From Blastocatellia bacterium (lineage in GTDB: Bacteria; Acidobacteriota; Blastocatellia; RBC074), in the NCBI GenBank assembly GCA_043783625.1, contig JAYVZE010000049.1, positions 32,656-96,655 of the forward strand: DNA of 64,000 nt, given 5' to 3'. Of this stretch, positions 1-16,060 are shown piece after piece; position 1 is the stretch's first letter; every line of letters starts with the position of its first letter. A program made the translations under genes and the position numbers. Under the pieces are notes generated by a model. That model was not told the DNA's origin, did no database searches, and saw only the letters and a program-made list of their open reading frames with translations.

Positions 1-3000
1 CTTGAGCGTTATTTAGAAAGCAAGGATAAGTTCGAGCAATTCAAACAGGCATTTCACGCCGCTGTTGGCAGCGTCTGGGAAGTTGAACGCGATGCTTATC
101 AGTTCAACCGCGATGAAGTCGCCAGGGCGTTGGCTGAAACCTTACATCTAAGTATCGAATCAGCCGAAAAATGGGTGGATGGCGATGAAAAAAGTTTTGC
201 GCTTTCCATCGAAAATTTCTGTAAATGGGTGAAACAATATCTTGATAAAAAAGGGCCGGATCACCACCTTATATTTTTGGTTGATGAAATCGGTCAGTTT
301 ATTGGTGATGACTCACATTTGATGTTGAGCCTGCAAACCATTACCGAAGAACTTGGCACCGTTTGTAAAGGTCGGGCCTGGGTGGTGGTGACTTCACAGG
401 AAGACATTGATGCCGTGCTGGGAGAAATGCCCAAGACGAAAGCCAATGACTTTTCCAAAATTCAGGGGCGCTTTAAAACGCGGCTTTCGCTTTCCAGCAC
501 CAACGTTGACGAAGTCATTCAAGCTCGCCTGCTCGCCAAGAATTTTGCTGCTCAGGATGAATTGACCGCACTGTATCAGGCCAAAGGCGACATCCTGAAA
601 AATCAGCTGACTTTTACCAATTGCGGCATGACGCTCAAGCCGTACAAAGATGTCGAGGACTTCGCCAAAAACTATCCCTTCGCTCCTTATCAGTTTCAGT
701 TAGTGCAAAAGATTTTTGAAGCCATTCGCCGTGCCGGTGCGACAGGCATGCATCTGGCACGGGGCGAACGGTCATTGCTGGACGCGTTTCAATCGGCAGC
801 CATCTCCATCGCCAATCAAGATGTCGGCGTACTGGTTCCGCTCCATTTGTTTTATCCTTCCATCGAAAACTTTCTGGACACCGCAGTCAAACTCACCATT
901 GATCAGGCCCGGCAGAATCCCGGTCTGGAACAACCTTTCGATAATCAGTTGCTCAGAGTGCTATTCCTGATTCGCTATGTCGAGGAAATGAAAGCTAACG
1001 TGGACAATCTGGTCACGCTGTCGCTGGAAGAAATTGACGGTGATCGTTTGGCGTTGCGGCGCAAAATCGAAGAGAGTTTGCAGCGGCTCGAAAAAGAAAC
1101 GCTCATCAGCCGCAACGGAGATTTATATTCTTTCTTAACCAACGAAGAACGCGACATCAACCGCGAGATCAAAAATATCAATCTGGCTGACGGCACAGAT
1201 TCCAAGATGCTGGGCGAATTGATTTTTGTTGATATTTTGAAAGATCAGCGCAAGTTTCGTTTTCCACTCAATAAAATGGATTTTAGTTACAACCGCTTGT
1301 GCGATTCCTATCTGATCGGATCGCGCACCGACGGTGCGTTGTTGGTGACACTCATCTCGCCGCTGAATGATGAATACGATTTTTTTGATAACAGTCGTTG
1401 TGTTTTGGACAGTGGCGCTGAGGGCGGACAGATCATCATCCGGCTGGGCAATGATGCGAATCCCGGTCGTGAGTTGCGCACCTATTTACAAACTGAAAAA
1501 TATATCCGCTCTGACAGTGGTAATTTACCTGAATCAACCCGCAAGATTCGAGCCAATATTGCCGCTGATAATCACAACCGACGTGGCAGGCTCATTACCT
1601 TATTAACAGATTTGCTGAGCGCCGCTGACGTCTTCGTCGTTGGTCAACCGCTGAAATTAAAATCCAGTGCGCCAATGGAAACGCTCAATGAAGCACTCGA
1701 ATATCTGGTGCAAAATAGCTTCACCAAAATGGGATATTTGAAATATCTCAATCCGAACGCGGAAAAAGAGCTGCAAGCTATTTTGCGTAGCAATGATATT
1801 GCCCAACAAACGCTGGCGTTATCGTTACCGGAAGCCAACAAAGATGCGCTCGATGATTTACGCAATTTTATTCAGCTTTGCACTAACACCAGCAGGCAAA
1901 TCATCCTGCACGAATTGCTCGAAAAACGGTATGCCCTGCGTCCCTATGGCTGGCCTGATAATGAAGTCTTGATTTTGCTGGCGCGGCTCCTGGTATTGGG
2001 CGAAATCAGTTTGCTGATGGACGGTAGTTTGATCGCACCGGACAAAATTTATGATGCCATCACGACGCCGGCCAAACGGCGCAAAATTGTTGTCCTCAAA
2101 AAACAAGCTACTGATCCGCAGGCAATTCAAACGGCACGCGCCCTCGGCAAAGACCTCTTTCACGAAATGGGGCCCGAAGGCGAAGACGCCTTATTGAGCT
2201 TTCTCAAAGAAAAATTCAGCCTTTGGAAATTGTCGTTCGAGGGCTTCAAGCCCTTGGCTGACACGGGCAATTATCCCGGCAAAGAGCAGATTAATGACGG
2301 TTTGGCAATCATTAGAAAGCTGCTCAATTTTGATGACAGCTATAAATTCATTGAGGACTTCAACAGCCGCAAAGAGCCGCTAAAAGATTTGTCGGACGAT
2401 TTTCACGACTTGCAAAATTTTTATGAAAATCAAAGACCGTCGTGGGAGCGCTTGCGCAAAGCGTACGAAAAATTCCAACTCAACCGAATGGAATTAGAAC
2501 GTGACGAACGATCCCATGCCGCGCTAGAGCGGATGCAGGAAATTCTTCATGCGCCGCAGCCATACAGCTTGATTCGTGAAATTGATAATCACGTCACAAT
2601 GGTGGGCGCAATCAATGCGGCACTCATTAATGACCAACGGGAACAGGTCTGCAAAACAATTGACGGGCATCTCAAAACCTTGACGAATGACCTTGACGCG
2701 GTGCAGGTTGACGCTTCATTGCGCATGACCTGCTTGCAACCGCTGGAGCAAATTCGCCGTCAGGTTGAAACCGAAGAAAGTCTTGCGCATCTTTCCCAAT
2801 TCGCCGCCGAAGCCTTGAAGTCTTATGACGCCGGGGTACAACGCATCGAAGCAGTGGTTCGACCTGCAATCATGGAACCGGCCACGCCCCAACCCGCCTT
2901 AAAAAAACAGCGCATTGTGGAACCCGCGAAATTGACGAAGGCGGCTTATCTGGAAACCAAAGAGGATGTGCAAAATTTTATTGCAGCGTTGCGGCAGGAA

Positions 3001-3045
3001 CTAGAAACAGCTATCGAAAATAATGAACGGGTTCAGATTCGGTAG
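1..3045 (+). CDS. brxC: BREX system P-loop ATPase BrxC (5'-truncated by window)
   Basis: Frame open from base 1; Walker B LIFLVDEIGQFIG, VVVTSQEDID, DFSKIQGRF, YPFAPYQF, RPYGWP motifs; upstream of pglX-pglZ-brxL. Confidence 0.93.
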   Translation, partial: LERYLESKDKFEQFKQAFHAAVGSVWEVERDAYQFNRDEVARALAETLHLSIESAEKWVDGDEKSFALSIENFCKWVKQYLDKKGPDHHLIFLVDEIGQFIGDDSHLMLSLQTITEELGTVCKGRAWVVVTSQEDIDAVLGEMPKTKANDFSKIQGRFKTRLSLSSTNVDEVIQARLLAKNFAAQDELTALYQAKGDILKNQLTFTNCGMTLKPYKDVEDFAKNYPFAPYQFQLVQKIFEAIRRAGATGMHLARGERSLLDAFQSAAISIANQDVGVLVPLHLFYPSIENFLDTAVKLTIDQARQNPGLEQPFDNQLLRVLFLIRYVEEMKANVDNLVTLSLEEIDGDRLALRRKIEESLQRLEKETLISRNGDLYSFLTNEERDINREIKNINLADGTDSKMLGELIFVDILKDQRKFRFPLNKMDFSYNRLCDSYLIGSRTDGALLVTLISPLNDEYDFFDNSRCVLDSGAEGGQIIIRLGNDANPGRELRTYLQTEKYIRSDSGNLPESTRKIRANIAADNHNRRGRLITLLTDLLSAADVFVVGQPLKLKSSAPMETLNEALEYLVQNSFTKMGYLKYLNPNAEKELQAILRSNDIAQQTLALSLPEANKDALDDLRNFIQLCTNTSRQIILHELLEKRYALRPYGWPDNEVLILLARLLVLGEISLLMDGSLIAPDKIYDAITTPAKRRKIVVLKKQATDPQAIQTARALGKDLFHEMGPEGEDALLSFLKEKFSLWKLSFEGFKPLADTGNYPGKEQINDGLAIIRKLLNFDDSYKFIEDFNSRKEPLKDLSDDFHDLQNFYENQRPSWERLRKAYEKFQLNRMELERDERSHAALERMQEILHAPQPYSLIREIDNHVTMVGAINAALINDQREQVCKTIDGHLKTLTNDLDAVQVDASLRMTCLQPLEQIRRQVETEESLAHLSQFAAEALKSYDAGVQRIEAVVRPAIMEPATPQPALKKQRIVEPAKLTKAAYLETKEDVQNFIAALRQELETAIENNERVQIR

Positions 3046-3091
3046 AGATCGCGTCTTGAATCAACGTTGGCGGATGCAATCGCCCCGTCTT

Positions 3092-3165
3092 CGTCTCGTG
3101 AGAGACGCCTGAATGTAGGCAGGCCGTGAACGACCTGCCTACACTCAACCGCCCCTATGGGGGGC
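3092..3165. repeat. REP-like cluster of GC-rich hairpins between brxC and pglX
   Basis: CGTCTC-GTGA-GAGACG (3092-3107); TGTAGGCAGG...CCTGCCTACA (3114-3143); GCCCCT-ATG-GGGGGC (3151-3165). Confidence 0.65.
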
Positions 3166-3523
3166 AATCATATGATCCGTTAATCCGTAACATCTAATGA
3201 ACCGCACCAAACTCAAAACCTACGCCCCGCAAGCCCGTCGTGACTTCATTCAGTCCATTACGGATCGCGCCGCTTACTATGGTCTCACCGCCAGCCATAC
3301 CGCCGACATCACCGCGCAACAAGGTGACGTAGCCATCATCAATGGCAAACCTTTTCTGCTCGCTGTCATTGAAAAACGCGCCCAATTAATCAAACGAATT
3401 GAACGCAACGGCTTCGCCCCAACCATGGAAGCCATTGCCTACACCTGGTTCAATCGCATCGTAGCCATTCGGTTTATGGAATTGCACGGCTATCTTGAGC
3501 ACGGCTACCGCGTACTTTCAACC

Positions 3524-3588
3524 ACCACGGATTACACGGATAGCACGGATGGAGTAAGAACATCAGTGTTATCTGCGAAATCCGTGGT
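3524..3588. repeat. Palindromic element (CACGGAT family) inserted in frame in pglX
   Basis: ACCACGGATTACACGGATAGCACGGAT ... ATCAGTGTTATCTGCGAAATCCGTGGT; same arms at 6355 and 7121. Confidence 0.85.
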
Positions 3589-4075
3589 TAAGCCTCCTGA
3601 AATCCTGCTCCACGCCGAACACATCGAATTGCCCGGCCTCAATCGTGACAAGGTGATTGAACTCAAACTGGACGGTACAAAAGAAGCGGAGTTGTATCGC
3701 CTGTTGCTCGTCGCGCAGTGCAATGCGCTCAGTGCGGCGATGCCGTTTCTGTTTGAGCGCGTAGACGACGAGACAGAATTGCTCCTGCCGGACAATCTGC
3801 TGCATTCCGATTCGCTGATTCGCAAGCTGGTCAACGACATTGACGAAAGCGATTGGCAACAGGTCGAAATCATTGGCTGGCTCTATCAGTTTTACATCTC
3901 CGAGAAAAAGGACGAAGTCATCGGCAAGGTCGTCAAAAGCGAAGACATTCCGGCGGCGACGCAATTGTTCACGCCCAACTGGATCGTCAAATATCTGGTG
4001 CAAAATTCTATTGGGCGCATGTGGATGGAAGCGAATCCGACCTCAAACCTTGCCAGCAAAATGGAATACTTCGTT

Positions 4076-4171
4076 GGATTGCGGAATGCGGATTTGGGAT
4101 TGCGGATTGAAGAAAATGAAGCCGCAATCCAACCTCCCCAATCGGCACTCCGCATTCCGCAATCCGCACTC
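4076..4171. repeat. Heptamer-repeat palindrome (GGATTGC / CAATCCG family) in frame in pglX
   Basis: GGATTGC GGAATGC GGATTTG GGATTGC GGATTG ... CAATCGG CACTCCG CATTCCG CAATCCG. Confidence 0.85.
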
Positions 4172-4628
4172 TCGCCAGAGGCGATTACCGTGCTTGATCC
4201 GGCGTGCGGTTCGGGACACATTCTGGTCGAAGCGTATGATTTGCTGAAAGAGATTTATCTGGAACGCGGCTACCGATTGCGCGACATCCCGCGTTTGATT
4301 CTGAGCAAGAATTTGTTCGGTCTGGATATTGATGACCGCGCCGCCCAACTCGCTTCGTTTGCATTGCTGATGAAAGCACGCGCCGATGATCGCAGAATTT
4401 TTGACCGAGGGAAGGAGGGACAGAGCGAGGGAGCGAACGAATTGCACTCATCACTCGTGAACGTTCTGACCATTCCCGACAGTTCCGCGCTTTCCCTGCG
4501 TCCGCATCAATTGGCAGAAAGTTTGTTCAGCGACAAAGCCCGACGCGGTGCAATTCCCATTCGTGATCCGAAATATTTATTCGGCGAAATGGAAGCCCAA
4601 CCCTCGCTACTGATGCTGGACGAATCAA

Positions 4629-4670
4629 TTACTCATCACTCATCACTCATCACTCATTACTCATCACTCA
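4629..4670. repeat. Tandem heptamer (T(C/T)ACTCA) x6 inside pglX
   Basis: TTACTCA TCACTCA TCACTCA TCACTCA TTACTCA TCACTCA, 42 bp, encoding about THHSSLITHYSSLT. Confidence 0.9.
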
Positions 4671-6354
4671 CCGAACAGCATCTCATAGATTTGCTCGAAC
4701 GCTTTGAGATGGGCAAAACGCTGGGTTCGCTGATTCGGTTGCCAGCGGGCTACGGCACAACACTCGCCGCCATCGCGGAGTTGATGGCGGACAAACGAGC
4801 GCACGGCGACATCTACGAAAAAACTGCCGCGCGTGAGATTGAGCCGTTTGTGCGCGCGGCGGAACTGCTGCACGCCCAATACGATTGCGTGATTGCGAAC
4901 CCGCCGTATATGGGCGGCAAAGGCATGAACGTCGCCGTCAAAGACTTTGCCAAACGCCAGTTTCCCGATAGCAAAAGCGATTTGTTTGCGATGTTCATTG
5001 AGCGTGTGATGGAAATGGTTAAGCCCAACGGTGAGTCGGGTTTTGTTACACCTTTTGTTTGGATGTTTATTTTATCTTATGAAAAGTTCCGCACAAATTT
5101 ACTGAAAGAAAATGCACTTTCTTCCTTGATTCAGCTTGAATACAACGCATTTGAACCGGCCTGCGTTCCAGTTTGTGCATTCACTGTAGCAAAGGGGAAA
5201 AACGAAAACTTTAAAGGCGATTTTATTAAGCTATCAGATTTTAAAGGGCATCAAGCACAAGCACCAAAAACATTGGAAGCCATACAAAATCCGCATTGCG
5301 GCTGGCATTTTCAAGCTTCAAGTCATGACTTCAAAATGATTCCAGGAAGCCCGATTGCATATTGGATTAGTAGAACTTTGTTCAATTCATTCTCAGTTTT
5401 TCCACTTTTATCTAGTAAAGCAAACGTAAAAGAAGGACTAAACACAGGCGATAATGAAGAGTTCTTTAGGTTATGGTGTGAAGTTGCACTGAAGTTAATT
5501 AAGTTCAATTCTGATTCAAGTGATGATGCGCGGCTAAGTGGTAGACGATGGTTTCCATGTAACAAAGGAGGTAGTTATAGGAAATGGTTTGGAAATCAGG
5601 ATACCGTTATTAATTGGGAAAATGATGGACAAGCTATTCGCAATTTCAGAAACCCTGAAGGAAAAATTTTGTCTTCTGTAAGGAACGCTAGTTTCTATTT
5701 CAAGGAAGGCTTGACTTGGTCAGGTGTCGGATCAAGCGGTTTCAGTGTTCGTAGCTTTGGAAAAGGTTTCATCTTTAATAGCGTGGGACGTTGCTTATTT
5801 CCGCACGAATATTCAAATTATGTTCTAGGATTCCTTAATTCAACTGTATGCGCCTCGTTACTGAGCGTTTTAGCTCCAACTCTACATTTTTCTGTGGGGG
5901 ATGTTTGCAATCTACCAATAGCACCTGTAAGAAAAGATTCAGTGTTAGTTGAAGATCAAGTTCGAGAAATGATCGAGGTCGCCAAAAGTGACTGGAACTC
6001 ATTTGAAATCTCATGGGACTTCCAAACTTTCCCGCTGCTCCGCTCCGACCTGAAAGCCGCCACCGTCGAACAATCCTTTCTCCACTGGCAACACGCTTGC
6101 CAAGCCAACCTGCAACGGATGCAGGAACTGGAGACCGAGAACAACCGCCTGTTCATTGACGCCTACGGCCTGCAAGACGAACTCAGCCCCGAAGTGCCGG
6201 AAGCGCAAATCACGCTTGCCCGCGCCGACCGCAGCGACGATACCAAACGGCTGCTCTCATACGCGCTAGGCTGTAGATGGGCCGCTACCGTCTCGACCGC
6301 GCGGGACTCGTGTATGCGGACAGCGGCAATCGGGACTTTGAGAAGATTTATGAT

Positions 6355-6491
6355 TTAACCACGGATTACACTGATAACACGGATGAAGAACAAGCAAGGC
6401 GTTCTGTGTCATCCACAATAACATTGCCCTCAGACGACAAGAAAGATTCTATTTTTCTTTCATCCGTGCTATCGGTGCAATCCGTGGTTAA
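6355..6491. repeat. Palindromic element (CACGGAT family) in frame in the pglX C-terminal part
   Basis: TTAACCACGGATTACACTGATAACACGGATGAA ... TTCATCCGTGCTATCGGTGCAATCCGTGGTTAA. Confidence 0.9.
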
Positions 6492-7120
6492 TTTCCCTCC
6501 TGACGCTGACGGCATTGTACCTGTCACCGAGATCGAATGGTTCGCCGACGACGCAGCCCACCGCTTTACGGAATTCATCAGCAAAGCGTGGAGCGGCGAA
6601 CAACTGGAAGCGAACCTGCGCTGGATAGCGGAATCGCTCGGCACATCGCGTGACGAAGATGCCCGCACTACGATCAGGCGTTATTTCGCCAACGGTTTTT
6701 TCAAAGACCATTTGAAGACGTACAAGAAGCGCCCGATTTACTGGCTTTTTTCCAGCGGCAAACAACGCGCGTTCCAATGCCTGGTGTATTTGCATCGCTA
6801 CAATGAAGGGACGCTGGCGCGAATGCGGACGGAATACGTGATCCCGCTGCAAGGCAAAATCGCCGCGCGGATTGAACAACTGGAACATGATAAGTTGGCC
6901 GCAAGTTCGACTTCGCACCGCAGGAAATTGGACAAGGAACAGGACATGCTGAAAAAACAGCAGACCGAATTGGTAACGTTTGATGAGAAGCTGCGGCATT
7001 ACGCGGATTTGCGGATTGCGCTGGATTTGGATGACGGGGTGAAGGTCAATTACGGCAAGTTTGGCGATTTGCTGGCGGACGTGAAAGCGATGACGGGCGG
7101 GAGCGAGGAATAAGGGCAAA

Positions 7121-7250
7121 GAATTTAACCACGGATGACACCGATAGCACGGATGGGATGAAGACAGATTTTACACGGCGAAACGATTTGCCCTTTGTCT
7201 GATTGTCTCTGCCTTGATCCGTGTTCTCTGTGTCATCCGTGGTTAAATTC
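7121..7250. repeat. Intergenic palindromic element (CACGGAT family) between pglX and pglZ
   Basis: GAATTTAACCACGGATGACACCGATAGCACGGAT ... ATCCGTGTTCTCTGTGTCATCCGTGGTTAAATTC. Confidence 0.9.
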
Positions 7251-7267
7251 AAAGAATCTAAAAAGGA

Positions 7268-9913
7268 ATGACGGAATCGAAAGTTAATCTGATGGATACT
7301 CGACAAATCACCGCAGCACTGACCAAAATCTATCACGACGAAAAGCAGCGCATTGTTTTTTGGCATGATCCTGAGCGCGAGTTTGAGAGCGTGATTTCAA
7401 TGCTGGAGCTGGATGGCATCAATATTTTGCGGCTCAACGAAATTGGTTCCTTAGCCGTCAAAATTAAACTTGAAGGCGAAGACACGAAGGGTAAATATTT
7501 ACTGTATTCTCCGATGGAAGAGCCTGCTTTCGAAAATGACTGGCTCCTGGACATTCGCCTGTACAGTCGCAGTTTTCGCGCCGACCGTGCTTCGATCCTG
7601 TTGGATGAGTTGGGGCTGGTCAATCAGCATCTGCGTCAACATCTGGCCGACCGTCGCAAGTTTTTCGACAATAAAGAGCGTTTGCAAAAGTTGAAGCAAA
7701 CGGTTGTCGCCACTGATACCGCGCTGGATTTAGATCGCAAAATGATGGCGGTAGTGACCAGGGCCGACCAGCCGGAATTATTCACCCTGATTCGCACCAT
7801 TTTCCACGCGTACACCGAACAGGGCGAAGATCTTGCGCTTGAAAATGAACCCGTCATCTGGGAACAGATGGCGAAATTTGATGTGACGCAATCCTTTTGG
7901 CAAATGGTCAAAACCTCTTTCGGTTATGAAGATGAGACGCCGACGCTGAAGAAATTTTTGCTTCGTTTGTTGGTGGCGGATTTAGCACAGCACCTGAAAT
8001 CAGATTTGCCCGGTGCTGTACAAACTCTTGTCCTGCCTGCCGGAGGCCGCCAGAATGCGACGGTCTGTTTAGGTCAATGGCGTGACAGCCGCAGCCTGAG
8101 CAGCAGCTATGACCGGCTCTCGGCAATCGTGTTCGCCCTCATCCATTTGGAAGATCATTTACACAAATATGAGCTGCGCGATTGGCTCGACGTAATGAGT
8201 TTTGCCGAACTTGAAAAAACAATTGCCAGTGAGTTGCGCAAATTAGTGCAGACGACCTCCGCGACAATTAACGTTGACGAGATCCGCGCCATTGCCGCGC
8301 GACGGCAGAATGGACATTGGGCTTCGCTGAATGTGGCGGGTTCAGCAGATGTTCCGCGTCAGGAATATCACGCGGTTTACGACGCGCTGGTCTATGCCGC
8401 CGGGTTTTATGCGCTGCGCAATCAGTATCAAAACGGCTTTCATTGTGCCGATGCCCGGACAATGTATCAAACCTATGAAAAAGAACTCTATCGTTTTGAT
8501 CAACTGTACCGGCGGTTTTGCGAAGCAGCGGACAAGGCTGAAATCTGGAATATTTTGAAACCGCTGCGCGAAGATATTGAGGCCGTCTATACGAATTGGT
8601 ACTTGCCAAATCTGGCGGTCAGTTGGGGCGCGTTTGTAAAACCTGATGGCAGGACAGCGCTGCTAAAAAATTGGCACATTGATAAAGTCCCGAATCAATA
8701 TCAATTTTTCGAGCGGCAACTAAAACCGCGCTTGGATCCGGCTGAAAATCGTAAGACTTATGTCATTATCAGTGACGCCTTTCGTTATGAGGCGGCGCAG
8801 GAATTAACGGATGAATTGAATGGCAAGTATAGATTTGAAGCCAGCTTGAGTTCACAGCTTGGCGTGTTGCCGTCTTACACAGTGCTGGGCATGGCAAGCC
8901 TAATGCCGCACGAAACGCTGGAATACAAAAGCAATGGCGAGGTATTAGTAGACGGCAAACCGAATGCAACGTTGGAACAACGGGACGAAATTCTGCAAAC
9001 CGTGGGCGGTCTGGCGTGCAAAGCAGATGAACTCATCAAAAAGAAAAAAGAAGAGGGCAAAGAATTTGTCAGCGGCAAGCGCGTTGTGTATGTGTATCAC
9101 AACGTGGTGGATGCGATTGGCGACACGTCTTCCACCGAAGAAAAAACCTTTGATGCAGTGCGAGATGCGATTAATGAGCTTGCCACATTGACGACGTATA
9201 TCATCAACAGTCTGGGCGGCAATCACATTTTGATTACGGCGGATCATGGATTTTTATTTACCGGAAGTCCACCCGGCGAACCGGAAAAAAGTAAGTTGGA
9301 AGAGCGTCCCAATGGAACGGTAAAAGCCAAAAAGCGCTATTTGATTGGATTGGATTTACCCGATCACGAAGCGGTCTGGCATGGCAGGACTGCTTTGACG
9401 GCAGAGGCTGACGGTGACATGGAGTTCTGGATTCCCAAAGGAGCCAATCGTTTTTATTTTGTTGGCGGTGCGCGTTTCATTCACGGCGGCGCCATGTTAC
9501 AGGAAATTGTGGTGCCGGTTGTGACCGTCAAACATGTGAAAGGGAAAGCCGTCAAAGATACGAAAACGAGTGCAGTCACCGTGCAAGTGCTGGGCAATAA
9601 TTTTAAAATCACTACGGCGCGACACCGGTTTGAATTGCTCCAGATGGAACCTGTGAGTGAAAGGGTGAAACCGATGACGCTCAAAATTGCCATTTACGAA
9701 GGCACTGAAGCGGTGACGAATATTGAAACGATTACCTTTGACAGCACTTCAGAAACAATGGACGAGCGTAAAAAATCGCTGACCTTAATTTTGCGCGACC
9801 ATCAATACAATAAAAAGACGACGTACCAACTGATTTTGCGTGATGTCGAAACAGAGATCGAACATCAAAACATACCGATCATAATTGACAGGGCTTTCAG
9901 TGATGACTTCTGA
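7268..9913 (+). CDS. pglZ: BREX-1 phosphatase PglZ (type A)
   Basis: RIVFWHDP, DWLLDIRLY, VIISDAFRYE, LPSYTVLGMASL, ITADHGF, RFIHGGAMLQE; start may be 7292. Confidence 0.95.
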   Translation: MTESKVNLMDTRQITAALTKIYHDEKQRIVFWHDPEREFESVISMLELDGINILRLNEIGSLAVKIKLEGEDTKGKYLLYSPMEEPAFENDWLLDIRLYSRSFRADRASILLDELGLVNQHLRQHLADRRKFFDNKERLQKLKQTVVATDTALDLDRKMMAVVTRADQPELFTLIRTIFHAYTEQGEDLALENEPVIWEQMAKFDVTQSFWQMVKTSFGYEDETPTLKKFLLRLLVADLAQHLKSDLPGAVQTLVLPAGGRQNATVCLGQWRDSRSLSSSYDRLSAIVFALIHLEDHLHKYELRDWLDVMSFAELEKTIASELRKLVQTTSATINVDEIRAIAARRQNGHWASLNVAGSADVPRQEYHAVYDALVYAAGFYALRNQYQNGFHCADARTMYQTYEKELYRFDQLYRRFCEAADKAEIWNILKPLREDIEAVYTNWYLPNLAVSWGAFVKPDGRTALLKNWHIDKVPNQYQFFERQLKPRLDPAENRKTYVIISDAFRYEAAQELTDELNGKYRFEASLSSQLGVLPSYTVLGMASLMPHETLEYKSNGEVLVDGKPNATLEQRDEILQTVGGLACKADELIKKKKEEGKEFVSGKRVVYVYHNVVDAIGDTSSTEEKTFDAVRDAINELATLTTYIINSLGGNHILITADHGFLFTGSPPGEPEKSKLEERPNGTVKAKKRYLIGLDLPDHEAVWHGRTALTAEADGDMEFWIPKGANRFYFVGGARFIHGGAMLQEIVVPVVTVKHVKGKAVKDTKTSAVTVQVLGNNFKITTARHRFELLQMEPVSERVKPMTLKIAIYEGTEAVTNIETITFDSTSETMDERKKSLTLILRDHQYNKKTTYQLILRDVETEIEHQNIPIIIDRAFSDDF

Positions 9914-11951
9914 GATTAACGAAATGGATACAACGCTTGATGCGCTGCTGAATCAGCATTTTGCCGGACGCGTCGTGCGCAAAGACCTGACCAAACTGGT
10001 CAAGGAAGGCGCGAATGTTCCGGTGTATGTGCTGGAATATTTGCTTGGCACTTATTGCGCCTCAAATGATGAAGCTGTCATTCAAGACGGGTTGCAGACA
10101 GTCAAACGGGTGCTGGCGGAAAACTATGTACGCCCTGATGAAGCCGAGAAAACAAAATCCATCATTCGTGAACGTGGCAGCCTGAAAATCATTGATAAAG
10201 TCACCGTGACATTGAATGAACGCCGCGACGTATACGAAGCGCTGCTGGCGAATTTGGGGGTGAAAGGGATTGAAGTAAACAGCGGCTATGTGAAGAAATA
10301 TGAAAAGCTGCTGGCGGGTGGTATTTGGTGCATTGCCACGCTTGAATATTTTTATGAGGAAGACCAGAAGGGGTCGCCATTTGTCCTGCGCGAATTGAAA
10401 CCAATTCAAATGCCGAATTTGGATTTGGAAGAATTGTTTGCAGGTCGCCGCGCCTTCACCGAAGAGCAATGGATTGACGTGCTGTTGCGTTCGACGGGAA
10501 TGGAACCTGCCAATTTTTCTGAACGCGTGAAATGGCATTTGCTGGCGAGGATGATTCCACTCGTAGAGAATAATTACAACTGTTGCGAATTGGGGCCGCG
10601 CGGAACAGGAAAAAGTCATATTTATAAAGAAATCAGCCCGAATAGCATTTTGGTTTCCGGTGGTCAGACGACCGTCGCAAACTTGTTTTATAACATGTCA
10701 CGGCGTGTGGTTGGTTTAGTGGGGGTGTGGGATGTCGTCGCCTTTGATGAAGTTGCAGGCATTTCTTTCAAAGATAAAGACGGTGTCCAGATCATGAAAG
10801 ATTACATGGCTTCGGGATCATTTGCACGAGGCCGTGATGCCATTAATGCGTATGCCTCAATGGTATTCGTCGGCAATATTAACCAGCCGGTTGAGACGCT
10901 TGTCAAAACCAGTCATCTGTTTGCGCCCTTTCCTGAAACAATGATTGATGCTGCCTTCTTTGATCGCTTCCACGCCTATCTTCCCGGCTGGGAAATTCCC
11001 AAAATGCGCCCGGAATTTTTTACGAATCAATATGGATTGATTGTGGATTATCTGGCGGAATGGTTCCGCGAAATGCGCAAACGTAATTGCGGCGATGCCA
11101 TCAATAAATATTTCAAACTGGGGCGCGACCTGAATCAACGCGACTCCATTGCCGTCAAAAGAACTGTCTCTGGTCTGCTAAAACTGCTCTATCCAGAGGA
11201 GGATTATAATAAAGAAGCAGTGCGCCGTTGTTTGGAATACGCCTTAGAATCGCGTCGCCGCGTCAAAGAGCAATTGAAGAAAATTGGCGGGATGGAATTT
11301 TACGATGTTCATTTTTCTTATCTTGCTCAGGAAACATTAGAAGAAAAATTCATCAGTATTCCAGAGCAAGGCGGTGGTTCGTTAATACCGGAAGGTGCGT
11401 TAAATCCCGGCGTTATACATACGGTTGCGACCGGAAGCGGTGGACATCTGGGATTATTTCGATTGGAAACACAAGTCACCGCAGGCAATGGAAGTTTGAA
11501 AATGTCCGGGCTGGGATCAAATAGCGCAGCTAAGGAAGCGATTAAAGTTGGCTTCGATTATTTTAAGGCGAATGCTTCACGCCTCAGAACATCTATCAAA
11601 CCAGGTGAGCATGATTATCATCTGCACATCGTCGAGCTTCATAATTCTGGCGCGACAAACTCCCTCACAATGCTGACCTTGATTGCCCTTTGTTCTGCTG
11701 TCTTGTCAAAATCAGTTCAGTCACAAATTGTTGTGCTGGGCAACATGAGTCTGGGCGGCAATATTCTCTCAGTTGAAAATTTGGCAGAGTCATTGCAAGT
11801 CGCTTTGGACGCAGGCGCAAAACGTATTCTGTTACCGATGGCAAGTGTGCGAGACATTCCGACGATTCCAGGCGAGCTCTTTGCAAAATTCCAAACGAGT
11901 TTTTATGCCGACCCTACTGATGCTGTTTTTAAGGCGTTAGGCGTTGAATAA
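9903..11951 (+). CDS. brxL: BREX Lon-like protein BrxL
   Basis: GRVVRKDL, ANVPVYVLEYLLG, ELGPRGTGKS Walker A, VAFDEVAG, C-terminal Lon-like domain. Confidence 0.95.
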   Translation: MTSEINEMDTTLDALLNQHFAGRVVRKDLTKLVKEGANVPVYVLEYLLGTYCASNDEAVIQDGLQTVKRVLAENYVRPDEAEKTKSIIRERGSLKIIDKVTVTLNERRDVYEALLANLGVKGIEVNSGYVKKYEKLLAGGIWCIATLEYFYEEDQKGSPFVLRELKPIQMPNLDLEELFAGRRAFTEEQWIDVLLRSTGMEPANFSERVKWHLLARMIPLVENNYNCCELGPRGTGKSHIYKEISPNSILVSGGQTTVANLFYNMSRRVVGLVGVWDVVAFDEVAGISFKDKDGVQIMKDYMASGSFARGRDAINAYASMVFVGNINQPVETLVKTSHLFAPFPETMIDAAFFDRFHAYLPGWEIPKMRPEFFTNQYGLIVDYLAEWFREMRKRNCGDAINKYFKLGRDLNQRDSIAVKRTVSGLLKLLYPEEDYNKEAVRRCLEYALESRRRVKEQLKKIGGMEFYDVHFSYLAQETLEEKFISIPEQGGGSLIPEGALNPGVIHTVATGSGGHLGLFRLETQVTAGNGSLKMSGLGSNSAAKEAIKVGFDYFKANASRLRTSIKPGEHDYHLHIVELHNSGATNSLTMLTLIALCSAVLSKSVQSQIVVLGNMSLGGNILSVENLAESLQVALDAGAKRILLPMASVRDIPTIPGELFAKFQTSFYADPTDAVFKALGVE

Positions 11952-11957
11952 TTACGC

Positions 11958-13826
11958 CTACTCCACTGTCACCGACTTCGCTAAATTCCTCGGCTGATCT
12001 ACGTCACATCCTCTTCTGACCGCGATGTGATATGCCAGCAATTGCATGGGGATTGTTGCCAGCACAGGCGAGAGCAATTCGCTGGATGGTGGGACTTCAA
12101 TTGTGAAGGAAGCCATGTCGCGGGTGTCGGTGTCGCCTTCGGTGACGATGGCGACGACGATGCCGTCGCGGGCGCGGACTTCCTGAATATTCGACAGGGT
12201 TTTTTCGTAGCGCAGTTTGGATTTTTCGTCATCGGAATCAAGCGTATTGATGACGACTACGGGCAGGCGCGAATCAATCAACGCGTTCGGTCCATGCTTC
12301 ATTTCTCCGGCGGCGTAGCCTTCCGCGTGGATGTAGGAAATTTCTTTCAGCTTTAATGCGCCTTCGAGCGCAATCGGGAAATTGACGCCGCGACCGAGAT
12401 AGAGGAAATCGCTCGACAGCACAAAATGTTTCGAGAGGTCTTCGTAATCAATGCTCGGATCGTTGAGCAATTTTTCCATCTTCACAGGCAATTCAGACAA
12501 ATGACGAACGTGCCATTTTAATTGGTCTTCGGTGAGCGTACCGCGTTCTTGCGCGAGATACAGCGCGAACAAATACGCCGCGACCATTTGCGAAGTGAAG
12601 GCTTTGGTGGAGGCTACGCCAATTTCCGGGCCGGCGTGCGTGTAAATTGTGCCGTCGGCTTCGCGTGTCATCATTGCGCCTTGCACGTTGCAAATGGCGA
12701 TGGAGCGACAGGCTTTTTCTTTGGCTTCACGCAAGGCTGCGAGCGTGTCCGCCGTTTCGCCGCTTTGCGAAATCACCATCATCAAAGTACTCGGCGTCAG
12801 GATCGGATTGCGATAGCGAAATTCCGAGGCGTAATCAACCTCGACGGGGACGCGTGCGAGTTCTTCGATAAAATATTTGGCAACTAATGCCGCGTGCCAG
12901 GCTGTGCCGCAGGCGGCGATTTTGATGTCGCTGAAGCTGCGGAAATACGCGGCGGGAATATTGATTTCATCCAGGTAAACTTTGCCCGTATCAAGTGACA
13001 CGCGATTTTGTGTGGTGTCACGAACGGCGCGTGGTTGCTCATAAATTTCCTTGAGCATGAAATGTTTGAAGCCACCTTTTTCCGCTTGAATCGGATCCCA
13101 CGTGATGCGCTGAACATCAGGTTTGACAGGTTTATTATTGCTGTCTTCGACCTTCACACCTTCGCGTGTCAGTACTGCCATTTCACCATCGCCGAGAAAA
13201 AACATGTTCCGTGTGTGCTGCAAAATCGCAGGGATGTCCGAAGCTACAAAAGACTCACCTTCGCCGAGTCCAATCACGACAGGAGGGCCTAAACGTGCGG
13301 CAACAAGCTTATTTGGTTCGTCAGCGGAAATCGCGACGAGCGCGTAAATGCCGCGAATTTCTTTGAGTGTGGCACGAAATGCGCCTTCCAAGCCAAGCTC
13401 AGGATTGTGACGCAGATGCTTTTCGATGAGGTGCGCAATGACTTCGGTGTCAGTTTCGGATTGAAAGCGATGATCGTTTTTTTGCAGCTCGCGTTTGAGT
13501 TCGAGGTAGTTTTCGATGATGCCGTTATGGACGACGCAAATGCGTCCATCACTGGAACGATGCGGATGCGCATTCTCTTCGGTTGGGCGTCCGTGCGTCG
13601 CCCAGCGCGTATGACCCAAGCCGTAATCACCTTCAATCGGATTTTTTGCCAGAACGGTTTCGAGGTTGCGCAATTTGCCTTCGGCGCGACGCACATGCAT
13701 TTCGCCAGCCTGATTGACGACGGCGATTCCGGCTGAATCATAGCCGCGATATTCCAATTTTCTCAGACCTTCGATGACAACGTCTACCACTTGCTGACTC
13801 CCGACATACCCAACGATTCCGCACAT
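11958..13826 (-). CDS. glmS: Glutamine-fructose-6-phosphate transaminase
   Basis: MCGIVG N-terminus, [32 protein letters not shown]-terminus. Confidence 0.99.
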
Positions 13827-13866
13827 AAAAACTCCTCACAATCAAACAGATATTTCTTTTGCTTTA

Positions 13867-14646
13867 TCAAGACTTTTGCTCAATAAACTGAAACTGAAAT
13901 TCCTTCACATAATGACTTAAGTAACAAAGCAAGGCATAGATAAAAATCAGAATTCCAGTCATTTCCAAAGATTCTTCAATAATTGTTTCGGCGACATATT
14001 GAAGCGATTCCAGCCCGTATACTTTTCGGATATGTCCGCCCACCATTTCCATTCCGGCGGCTCCGGTAATAAAAACACCTCCGCCTGCAATAAAAAGCCA
14101 ACGAAACTTAGCGGGCAAATCCCACAAGAATCGGAGGTAAAGCGCACCCACAATCGGCACGATCATGACCGCTAAAAGAACCCAGGCATAATAAAAATAA
14201 CCATCTGTTCCAAAAACAGCTCGCAACGGTATGATGGTCATTTCGTGCAATTCAACACCTTCGTCGAGCGCGAGATAAAAGAAGAATCCCGCCAGACACC
14301 ACCAGTGTCGAGCAAACGGATTTTTCATTTTACTGGCTGCCTGCGCAATCATTGCCAGTAAGCCGACGCAGAGGAAAAAACTGAGTGTCTGGTAGAGATT
14401 GGGAACGTTGAATTCACCATCCAGATCGAATTTATCCATCAACCACCAGAGGTGTTTCAGGCGCATGACTTCTTCGCCTAATGATAATCTAAGCGACTGT
14501 ACCGCTATTCCGAGTACGATCAGTAATGAAACTAACCCCGAAAGGACTCGGATGATTTTTTGCGGTGAAATACGAAATGAAACGGCTGTTACCGTTCTTG
14601 CAAAAGGATTTTCTTGATTAACATTGCTAACTGTCTCCAGAATCAT
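13867..14646 (-). CDS. Hypothetical multi-pass membrane protein
   Basis: Several hydrophobic segments; FDLDGEFNVP, LALDEGVELHE, IEESLEM motifs. Confidence 0.75.
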   Translation of the reverse strand: MILETVSNVNQENPFARTVTAVSFRISPQKIIRVLSGLVSLLIVLGIAVQSLRLSLGEEVMRLKHLWWLMDKFDLDGEFNVPNLYQTLSFFLCVGLLAMIAQAASKMKNPFARHWWCLAGFFFYLALDEGVELHEMTIIPLRAVFGTDGYFYYAWVLLAVMIVPIVGALYLRFLWDLPAKFRWLFIAGGGVFITGAAGMEMVGGHIRKVYGLESLQYVAETIIEESLEMTGILIFIYALLCYLSHYVKEFQFQFIEQKS

Positions 14647-14680
14647 TTTTTTCCTTAACCGGGTGCCATAGATTGAATAC

Positions 14681-16060
14681 TTATTTTAATTTTTTCTTAA
14701 CTTTGGCAGGAACGCCTGCGACCAATGAATCTTCGGGAACGTCATCAATAATGACTGAACCTGCGGCGGATATTGAACCACGTCCGACTTTTACCGGAGC
14801 CACCAGCATCGTGTCCGAACCAATTTTCACATCGTCTTCAATAAAAGTCGGGTTTTTATTCTTGCCGTCGTAATTACAAGTTACCGTACCCGCACCAATA
14901 TTGACACGCTCGCCAATCGTGGCATCACCCAAATAGGTCAGGTGCATAGATTTCGATTTGCGTCCAAGTTTAGTTTTCTTAAGTTCGACGAAATTACCAA
15001 CGACGGCGGCTTCATCCAGCACAGAGTGCATTCGCAAATGCGCAAACGGCCCGACTTTATTATTGGCAGTGAGTTTGCTGTTAATCAGAACGCAGGAATT
15101 ATTCACCGTGCATTCATCGCCGATTTCGACGTTGGTCAGATGCGACCACGAATGAATTTCACACTGACTGCCAATCTGCGAAGCACCTTCGATAATGACT
15201 TGTGGATGGATGATGGTGTCGCGCCCGATTTGCACTTCAACGTCAATGTAGGTCGAAGCGGGATCAACAATCGTGACGCCTTCGGTCATCAGCGCATCCA
15301 ATTTTTCACGGCGGAGTTTATTCCAGCCCAGCGCAATTTCAGCCCGATTATTAAAGCCCTGTAACTCCATTTCATCATCGTGCAAAACGGTTCCGACGGC
15401 TTTGTCAGCGGAGCGTAAAATTTCAGGAACATCAGTTAAGTAATATTCACCTTGTGCGTTTTTCGTAGTCAGCCGATCAAGTGTCGGAAGCAATGCCTGA
15501 ATATCAAAGCAGTAAAATCCGGGATTTACTTCTTTGATTAATTTTTGTTCAGGAGTGCAATCTTTATCTTCGACAATTTTAGCAAATTGCCCGGTTTCAT
15601 CGCGGACGATCCGACCATACGCGGGCGGTGCTTCCATTTTCATGGTGATGAGCGTCGCGGCATTTTGCTCAGATTCATGAGTGGTTTTCAGTTTTTGCAA
15701 AGTCGAAGCTTTGACGAGCGGCGCGTCACCGTAGCTAACGATTAAAGCTCCAGTGGCTTTTTCCAGAACTTCGCGGGCACTCATGACAGCGTGCCCCGTA
15801 CCTTTTTGTTCGGTTTGCAGGACGAACACCAACCGTTCAGCCATGTCAGGATCAAGTGCAGCGCGGGAAGCGGCTTCGACCTGTTCGGCTTGATGCCCGA
15901 TAACGACAATTATTTTTTCGGGATTGAGCCGGGCAGCAGTACGCAGGACGTGTGCAATCATGGGCTGACTGCCAAGTTTATGCAGGACTTTGGCCTGATC
16001 GCTTTTCATGCGCGTGCCGAGTCCGGCAGCTAAAATCAAAACGTTAATGGGCTGGCTCAC
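14681..16060 (-). CDS. glmU: Bifunctional UDP-GlcNAc pyrophosphorylase / GlcN-1-P acetyltransferase
   Basis: [31 protein letters not shown], hexapeptide repeats. Confidence 0.98.

Follow-up and report, generated by a model that had tools for sequence, protein, structure and literature searches.

How several different palindromic repeats have come to lie in frame inside a single phage-defence gene is the question raised by a locus of a Blastocatellia bacterium (Acidobacteriota; GenBank assembly GCA_043783625.1). The window analysed here, to which all coordinates refer, is a stretch of 64,000 nucleotides of its contig JAYVZE010000049.1 (positions 32,656 to 96,655 of the forward strand). The host is a soil or sediment acidobacterium with an assembly of 6.09 Mb in 240 contigs (47.4% GC; labelled G000 among the compared genomes, with the window on contig C49), and Pfam searches of the neighbouring open reading frames (ORFs) gave the gene order brxC-pglX-pglZ-brxL at the start of the window, that is, a bacteriophage exclusion (BREX) locus. 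An earlier note, made from the letters alone, had described repeat-derived coding segments in pglX and had proposed that hairpin elements target this gene or are retained in its linkers, where they might diversify its surface or serve as recombination handles. Our analysis suggests that the inserts are probably tolerated passengers of a genome-wide repeat population, similar to the Rickettsia palindromic elements (RPEs), without a PglX-specific role.

By its gene string and full-length similarity, the host gene can be assigned to BREX type 1 PglX (BrxX), an N6-adenine methyltransferase. Its 5' piece matches the solved structures of Salmonella PglX (8c45, E 7e-230) and E. coli BrxX (E 2.5e-214) as well as the Pfam families Eco57I, N6_Mtase and MmeI_Mtase, and methyltransferase motifs I (DPACGSGH) and IV (ANPPYMGG) are present in the translation. 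The close relatives of this protein come from Acidobacteriota, Aridibacter and Pyrinomonadaceae, and the best named locus is from a metagenome-assembled genome (MAG) of Blastocatellia.

DNA folding was scored against 200 dinucleotide shuffles, and tandem arrays were detected with Tandem Repeats Finder (TRF) at a score of at least 30. Elements A and C within pglX and a free copy directly behind it are hairpins of the CACGGAT type with inverted ends in all three copies, and their arms measure 28 nt (3524-3551/3561-3588, 82% complementary), 33 nt (6355-6387/6459-6491, 91%) and 34 nt (7121-7154/7217-7250, 91%), respectively. Their folds (A: -18.2 kcal/mol, z -6.0; C: z -7.5; free copy: z -9.6) were equalled by none of the 200 shuffles, which also holds for element B (z -5.9), whose arms of 31 nt (4076-4106/4135-4165, 84% complementary) consist of heptamers of the GGATTGC family, detected by TRF at 4076-4109 and 4135-4168 with period 7 and 4.9 copies each. 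Direct as well as inverted matches link elements A and C. The fourth segment, an array of ATCACTC (TCACTCA) units with a TRF score of 73, had no hairpin partner that folding could find. The four hairpins and arrays within pglX and the free copy after it were therefore recovered as the earlier note had described them, and the peptides it quoted are present in the translation. A partial GGGA-rich arm listed there (4408-4435) did not hold up as a hairpin, because its fold is no better than those of shuffles (z -0.6; 54/200), but it can be counted as a decayed relic, since relatives hold full hairpins at this site. For brxC, pglZ and brxL, TRF at the same threshold returned nothing of period 7 or 9 with at least three copies, in agreement with what had been noticed before; one 2.1-copy period-7 match in pglZ just reached the threshold score. 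A comparison with Rfam returned two plant-miRNA hairpin models only, far under their thresholds (27.9 vs 80; 21.4 vs 100), and no family was assigned. The free copy is bordered by an 8-nt direct repeat, CAAAGAAT (7117-7124 and 7250-7257), possibly a target-site duplication, and no such repeat borders coding sites A or C. The gene thus appears to be composite, with native sequence interspersed with short stretches, at least four and probably five in number, that derive from small non-coding repeats of the genome.

Two repeat classes were recognised over the whole genome, heptamer-armed hairpins or arrays and 9-mer-armed hairpins, and a count of copies inside and outside ORFs found both to be dispersed. 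With a looser TRF cut, 613 period-7 arrays were obtained, 220 of which are inside a rough set of 4759 ORFs; strict criteria gave 259 heptamer arrays, including 66 that lie at least 150 nt inside ORFs. Hairpins with 9-mer arms amount to 93 in the genome, mostly of the CCACGAAG type, and the pglX copies represent the CCACGGAT subfamily. A search by blastn-short with six segments had initially pointed to a CACGGAT repeat private to pglX, an idea that was dropped when the TRF listing and looser patterns gave more diverged CCACGGAT, CCACAGAT and CCACGAAG hairpins dispersed across the genome. The exact CACGGAT subfamily (copies A, C and free) is confined to this locus, with no other copy in the 6.09-Mb assembly. 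Apart from those in pglX, the other seven 9-mer-armed hairpins scored as being in ORFs are located toward the 5' end of the called ORF (one of them, C36, about 450 nt in) and look like over-called starts. Among the strict GGATTGC clusters, 12 of 13 are in ORFs, and 11 of these (in 10 ORFs) are in ORFs of 400-1127 codons; examples of this type are found at C129:14370-14457, C152:13486-13547 and C161:9584-9651, one of them in a protein-kinase domain. Pfam searches of 17 host ORFs identified three Ser/Thr kinases, seven PSCyt/PSD proteins (DUF1549/DUF1553/DUF1592-type), a non-ribosomal peptide synthetase (NRPS), a P450-reductase fusion, a GT28 transferase, Mfd and others. Because the same repeats lie inside many unrelated genes (66/259 by the strict and 220/613 by the loose count), they are better regarded as passengers than as a defence device, and the proposal of inserts special to PglX or to defence genes is largely refuted.

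A filter imposed by translation is visible in the distribution of these arrays. Arrays with stop codons on both strands are almost never internal to ORFs (1/28), and of those with stops on one strand 30/118 are internal, with the stop-free strand being the sense strand in 28 of the 30; arrays of stop-free units are internal in 35 of 113 cases. The elements of pglX follow the same rule: every sense frame of the ATCACTC array is open and every antisense frame has stops, and element B is open in five of six frames. The free copy also has an open minus-strand frame, which was set aside since, for 46 codons, chance alone would leave one of six frames open in about half of all cases.

Comparison with four congeners (G001, G008, G009 and G012) and one class relative (G057) revealed both empty alleles and turnover at fixed sites. 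Site A is empty, with an HPEGKDT-like native loop, in G001, G009, G012 and G057, and is filled in G000 and G008, where 21 native nt have given way to 75 nt; site C is empty in the same four relatives. Element B stands in place of a widely conserved native loop (EPAEQT..AAITP). At sites A and B, the native loop has therefore been overwritten and not merely extended. Site B of G001 has a hairpin of the same length and with the same GAAGAAAAT loop, but with GAACGCG-type arms, and identity between G000 and G001 is only 56% over these 96 nt, compared to 91-92% in the flanks. Pair-by-pair covariation was considered for this site and rejected in favour of replacement, because of the 32 pairs of G000, 15 are broken in G001, which is in another fold register (13 are unchanged, three are changed on both sides and one on one side with pairing kept). 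An identity of 0.70 for the 300 nt downstream of site B was left unused, as this ungapped comparison runs into the next indel site. The arms correspond to what each genome contains: GAACGCG arrays have 44 matches in G001 and none in G000, and GGATTGC has 40 in G000 (0 in the control), 88 in G001 and 3-8 in three other genomes. At the array site, six heptamers each are present in G000, G001 and G012, with units unrelated between genomes, and the site spans 14 codons in these three as well as in homologues P0003, P0004 and P0006. Intact orthologues such as P0003 (1318 aa) share inserts with G000, and P0003 has a GGATTGC-type hairpin where G000 has element C. In three congeners, contigs end inside pglX (G001:C238, G008:C183 and G009:C707/C488), in G008 at site B, which suggests that these repeats break short-read assemblies.

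The sites of insertion were mapped onto an AlphaFold2 model of the 5' piece (116 sequences; mean predicted local distance difference test (pLDDT) 84.9, predicted template modelling score (pTM) 0.83) and onto the domain map of the Salmonella PglX structure (Went 2024, PMC11341690). Sites A (pLDDT 50-52) and B (43-68), the GGGA relic and the array are all within the range of 43-68 and are flanked by blocks of at least 85, so that the four sites of the modelled piece are predicted to be low-confidence, disordered loops. By HMMER alignment to Salmonella PglX, site A is in the N-terminal helical bundle and site B directly precedes motif I; relic and array occupy a variable stretch beside residues 418-420, a loop left unmodelled in the crystal according to the available text of PMC11341690, and element C sits between residues 1005 and 1010 in the C-terminal region. 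The same text reports that charged residues of this region bind Ocr and DNA, and its authors suggest possible contact with other BREX parts. The earlier idea of hairpin elements in PglX linkers is thus borne out insofar as repeat-derived segments are kept in loops, but this is not special to PglX or defence genes. A further stretch of the product (P0001, residues 238-256, about 3908-3964) contains a near-invariant KDEVIGKVVKSEDIPAATQ and is the most conserved part of the family, yet its pLDDT is 36-60; it may be a mobile functional loop.

Inserts at the same places recur across the PglX family. Those of at least eight residues were found among homologues in 9 of 116 at site A, 5 of 116 at site B and 12 of 115 at site C. 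Among 58 full-length ORFs recovered from 80 loci of species genomes, hairpins at A, B or C, or at an additional recurrent site (D), were observed in PglX of Pirellulales, Planctomyces, Lamprobacter and Thiocapsa (two Chromatiaceae) and Blastocatellia genomes, with a weaker case in a Methanoperedens genome. PglX of a Pirellulales MAG (L073) contains CCACGGAT 9-mer-armed hairpins, the same family as in the acidobacterium, in frame at A and D, and this family is dispersed in the Pirellulales genome G061 (39 matches vs 1 in the control). The PglX genes of other phyla carry hairpins of their own genomes at these loops. Site D, located after an EF..W helix and empty in G000, has long near-perfect hairpins in L049 and L055 (-48 to -60 kcal/mol). 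Other kinds of insert were also seen among the homologues, namely a 24-residue tandem repeat in three copies and an insert of about 80 residues rich in Pro, Ala and Thr (P0004 and P0008/P0018).

The gene itself is interrupted. Instead of one frame of about 1200 codons, pglX consists of two ORFs (3197-6358 in frame 2 and 6277-7113 in frame 1), and the stop of the first (TAA, 6356-6358) falls within the first bases of element C. The statement that all inserts are read through without stops in a single pglX has to be corrected accordingly, as element C is open only in the frame of the second ORF. Where 13 homologues and the congeners have the motif GCMMGRYSLD, G000 has GC, a change of frame and MGRY, which is the footprint of a 1-nt deletion. 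Logan contigs of runs X1-X3 cover 4641-7300 with 0 differences at a depth of 10-14, and an assembly artefact was dismissed because these contigs are identical over the break, although these runs all belong to a single study, the assembly itself may have been made from them, and rare variants do not show in contigs. Programmed frameshifting at 6275 was also considered, and mutation was favoured, as the sequence has no slippery heptamer there and relatives in run X4 of the same study have one extra base behind 6274 or 6275 that leaves the frame intact. The deletion is therefore a true feature of the strain that is independent of the repeats and leaves pglX broken or split in two. Since the ATG of the second ORF coincides with the conserved MGRY and an AGG lies six bases upstream of it, a two-piece enzyme made from both ORFs is conceivable.

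Recombination has acted on another part of the gene. GC content is 37-42% over 5000-5950, compared to 50-59% on both sides, and in two comparisons, sliding identity to G001 and G012 drops at the repeat sites, breaks around residues 590-720 (nt 4990-5300) and recovers around residue 960 (nt 6000-6075). Because similarity to the congeners breaks at the low-GC borders, the specificity module must have been exchanged between lineages. The view of the repeats as recombination handles finds no support here, as in both comparisons identity breaks at the borders of the recognition module and not at A or C. Several joints among the run contigs, each seen in one contig only (sides 27-80, 85% likeness), were too weak to be counted: those of X4 (3513>3599, 4072>4187 and 6384>6461) are compatible with alleles without A, without B or without the loop of C, and one of X2 (6385>7213) is compatible with a deletion between C and the free copy. 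Nothing was inferred from the depth at 4087-4227 and 4510-4791 (1392-4267 at the array), which reflects unrelated contigs sharing heptamers, and contigs that end inside the 4629-4670 array cannot show variation in unit number.

Taken together, the reading of the inserts as tolerated passengers would involve two classes of repeat: tandem 7-nt-unit hairpins or single arrays (the GGATTGC hairpin, the ATCACTC array and the decayed G-rich relic) and hairpins with 9-nt-periodic arms (the CCACGGAT subfamily, part of a superfamily with about 93 members, most of which are CCACGAAG-type). Such repeats would arise or land at many places in the genome and be retained only where the frame is preserved, stops are absent and the loop is permissive. 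PglX may have collected several of them because it is large and dispensable and has several long variable loops, and the inserts would be translated as disordered loop residues that are neutral or nearly so. A number of observations weigh against this reading. GGATTGC-type strict arrays are internal to ORFs in 15 of 18 cases, compared to about a quarter over all families, and the stop-codon filter alone leaves this coding bias unexplained. By automatic array count, pglX is tied for the top three of 4758 ORFs (3 arrays found vs 0.35 expected; Poisson P 0.006, uncorrected), and the only two of the 93 9-mer-armed hairpins that are well inside a gene are both in pglX. On FastTree trees of the flanking conserved parts, the inserts require a minimum of 6 changes at A, 3 at B and 10 at C, counts that recombination may inflate; such repeated change could indicate targeting or selection instead of mere tolerance. 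The ORF set is also a crude longest-ORF call, the comparison across other phyla covers PglX alone among large proteins, and translation of the inserts is something that we infer. Of the sequencing runs that contain the stretch, none is on record as RNA.

Selection for variety is one such alternative: the inserts might be kept since varied PglX surface loops help to escape BREX blockers (DNA mimics such as Ocr) or alter contacts between BREX subunits. The same loops recur across lineages and phyla, sites C and D are in the C-terminal region with the charged residues for Ocr and DNA (in the available text of PMC11341690), and arrays of at least three copies are confined to pglX when compared with brxC, pglZ and brxL, all of which would fit. 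However, the peptides follow whichever repeat family the genome holds, with no shared protein motif, the same elements are found in kinases, Mfd, NRPS and other proteins, and the segments are predicted to be disordered; because what fills these loops in each genome is simply drawn from the repeat families found all over that genome, diversification is less likely, and we consider this explanation improbable. At orthologous spots in sister genomes, a hairpin or array stays in position, at two sites with its length unchanged (96 nt for B, six units for the array), and its unit sequence is swapped for another family common in that genome. Such turnover may be something other than random decay and would fit a process that rewrites or replaces heptamer and 9-mer arrays in place, perhaps by targeting existing hairpins, with PglX loops A, C and D favoured for landing in three or more phyla. 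That site-directed rewriting of this kind is at work is also doubtful, if slightly less so. Should it be real and tune or switch PglX as well, a defence protein would be varied in a way that is new.

Two further explanations concern the state of the gene. Slippage by 7 nt could shift the frame, and recombination between palindromes could delete or invert parts of the gene, turning BREX off and on in a subpopulation. For such a switch speak an in-ORF repeat whose unit is not a multiple of three (7 nt x 5.7 copies, 4631-4670), the matching of elements A and C in both orientations, one low-depth X2 contig (3.2 vs 13.7, side 32) joining 6385 in the left arm of C to 7213 in the free copy's right arm, and the strong enrichment of PglX among targets of programmed inversion (odds ratio 20.9) together with the existence of a natural split PglX, as given in the accessible text of PMC9881135. 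Nevertheless, the array site has kept 14 codons in all six orthologues, the actual frameshift is outside any repeat, no strand-changing joint is listed among the contigs of runs X1-X4, and the sole C/free joint is weak and, at 85% likeness, may stem from another organism. The hallmarks of a PglX shufflon, a recombinase gene and a partial pglX copy with inverted repeats, are absent between brxC and brxL (ORF list and Pfam), with glmS-like and glmU-like genes following downstream. We consider a switch unlikely. That pglX is simply a dead gene in which repeats piled up under relaxed selection is the least probable of all these explanations and very hard to maintain: the 1-nt deletion, identical in the contigs of three runs, would agree with it, but every insert is in frame and stop-free, A and B are common to intact orthologues (P0003; G008 for the N-terminal part), the X4 relatives are intact at 6274/6275, and besides the one deletion both pieces are open and highly similar to solved PglX. 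Tolerated passengers thus remain the probable explanation of the inserts.

Repetitive extragenic palindromic (REP) and REPIN hairpins are mobilised by RAYT (Y1 HUH) transposases. Like these and the miniature inverted-repeat transposable elements known as MITEs, the elements described here are small, dispersed, gene-less hairpins, and the free copy has its 8-nt direct repeat; they differ in that no GTAG/CGTC head, linked transposase or consistent target-site duplication was seen (no search for a parent element was made), and two coding copies replace native codons without duplication. The closest resemblance in behaviour is to RPEs, which a MITE review (PMC10969869), in the text available, describes as palindromic repeats that lie in frame in unrelated genes, are read as extra peptide and are thought to be compatible with folding. 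Both are short palindromic repeats of several families that are dispersed, with many in frame in unrelated genes, whereas an RPE is a conserved element of ~150 bp encoding a conserved peptide, and the arms seen here are tandem 7-nt or 9-nt units. Other differences are the free-living host with a 6-Mb genome and, at several sites, a native loop that has been replaced and repeat families that are quickly exchanged at one spot. The comparison is based on architecture and behaviour and not on RPE sequences, for which homology is not expected in another phylum with another architecture.

Heptameric simple sequence repeats (SSRs) have been described by Rehm et al. (2015, PMC4692102), whose accessible text focuses on G-quadruplexes and reports under-representation in coding regions and convergent inverted pairs (Xanthomonas, GGGAATC; Nostoc, GGGGA(C/T)T). 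Those repeats share with the present ones 7-nt units in about 4-5 copies, often a nearby reverse-complement partner with which a stem-loop can form, and a scattered, mostly non-coding distribution; here, in contrast, about a quarter of the strict arrays are in frame in ORFs, GGATTGC is mostly coding, and the units are not prone to form G-quadruplexes. Programmed inversions of PglX in BREX-1 and a natural split PglX are described in the available text of Milman et al. (2023, PMC9881135). A variable middle between constant N- and C-termini is common to those systems and the present gene, which also has two ORFs with the second being the C-terminal part, but the long inverted repeats shared with partial pglX copies and the recombinase reported there are missing here, and the split, some 90 codons beyond the variable module, is due to the loss of 1 nt. 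Narrow searches of open-access full text found no paper that describes, for pglX or for Acidobacteria, in-frame hairpins with heptamer or 9-mer arms. It is notable how many repeat families one defence gene contains and that the same loops are used again in different phyla.

These observations would mean that hairpin repeats, whether selfish or born by slippage, can enter working proteins well outside Rickettsia. For BREX research, four to six loops of PglX may be able to tolerate large replacements, which could be useful for engineering or tagging, and annotators should be aware that odd low-complexity stretches and contig breaks in pglX may be repeat-derived. How arrays originate and are exchanged at a fixed site is a general question and not one specific to BREX.

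Table 1. Features of the BREX locus at the start of the window, with the basis of each assignment.
Feature	Position	Strand	Basis
brxC, 5' end outside the window	1..3045	+	Pfam BREX_BrxC_4th, BrxC_helical, BrxC_wHTH
Hairpin between brxC and pglX	3101..3156	.	Inverted repeat, 27-nt arms, 78% complementary
pglX 5' ORF: helical bundle, methyltransferase, recognition domain, spacer helices, 27-residue out-of-frame tail	3197..6358	+	ORF list; Pfam
Element A, hairpin with 9-nt-periodic arms (CACGGAT units), reads TTDYTDSTD..SVLSAKSVV	3524..3588	+	Inverted repeat, fold, open frame
Element B, hairpin with tandem-heptamer arms (GGATTGC family), 32 codons, just 5' of methyltransferase motif I	4076..4171	+	Inverted repeat, TRF, fold
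Putative decayed G-rich heptamer relic (GGGA arm)	4405..4455	+	Full hairpins at the same site in G001 and G012; heptamers in G057
Single-arm array of six heptamers (ATCACTC), 14 codons	4629..4670	+	TRF 4631-4670, period 7 x 5.7, score 73
Low-GC (37-42%) target-recognition module, swapped relative to congeners	5000..5950	+	Composition profile, sliding identity
Frame break, 1-nt deletion within conserved GCMMGRY codons, near 6275	6272..6280	+	ORF list; homologue alignments
pglX 3' ORF, C-terminal 278 residues, start MGRY	6277..7113	+	E 2e-78 to 8c45 residues 982-1222
Element C, 9-mer-armed hairpin, 71-nt loop, reads TTDYTDNTD..SSVLSVQSVV	6355..6491	+	Inverted repeat, fold, open frame
Free intergenic CACGGAT copy, directly 3' of pglX	7121..7250	.	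Inverted repeat, fold
pglZ	7268..9913	+	Pfam PglZ, E 7e-62
brxL	9885..11951	+	Pfam BrxL_ATPase, BrxL_N, Lon_C

Two observations concern the surroundings of the gene. The imperfect hairpin between brxC and pglX, around which 140-nt windows reach -30 to -32 kcal/mol (local mean -16.8), could be a terminator or a further repeat copy. Beyond brxL, a convergent glmS-like gene (GATase + SIS) on the minus strand ends with its 3' end 7 nt from the BREX string and is followed by a glmU-like gene (11958-16060 for both); the region 3' of glmS is a classic place for mobile DNA to integrate.

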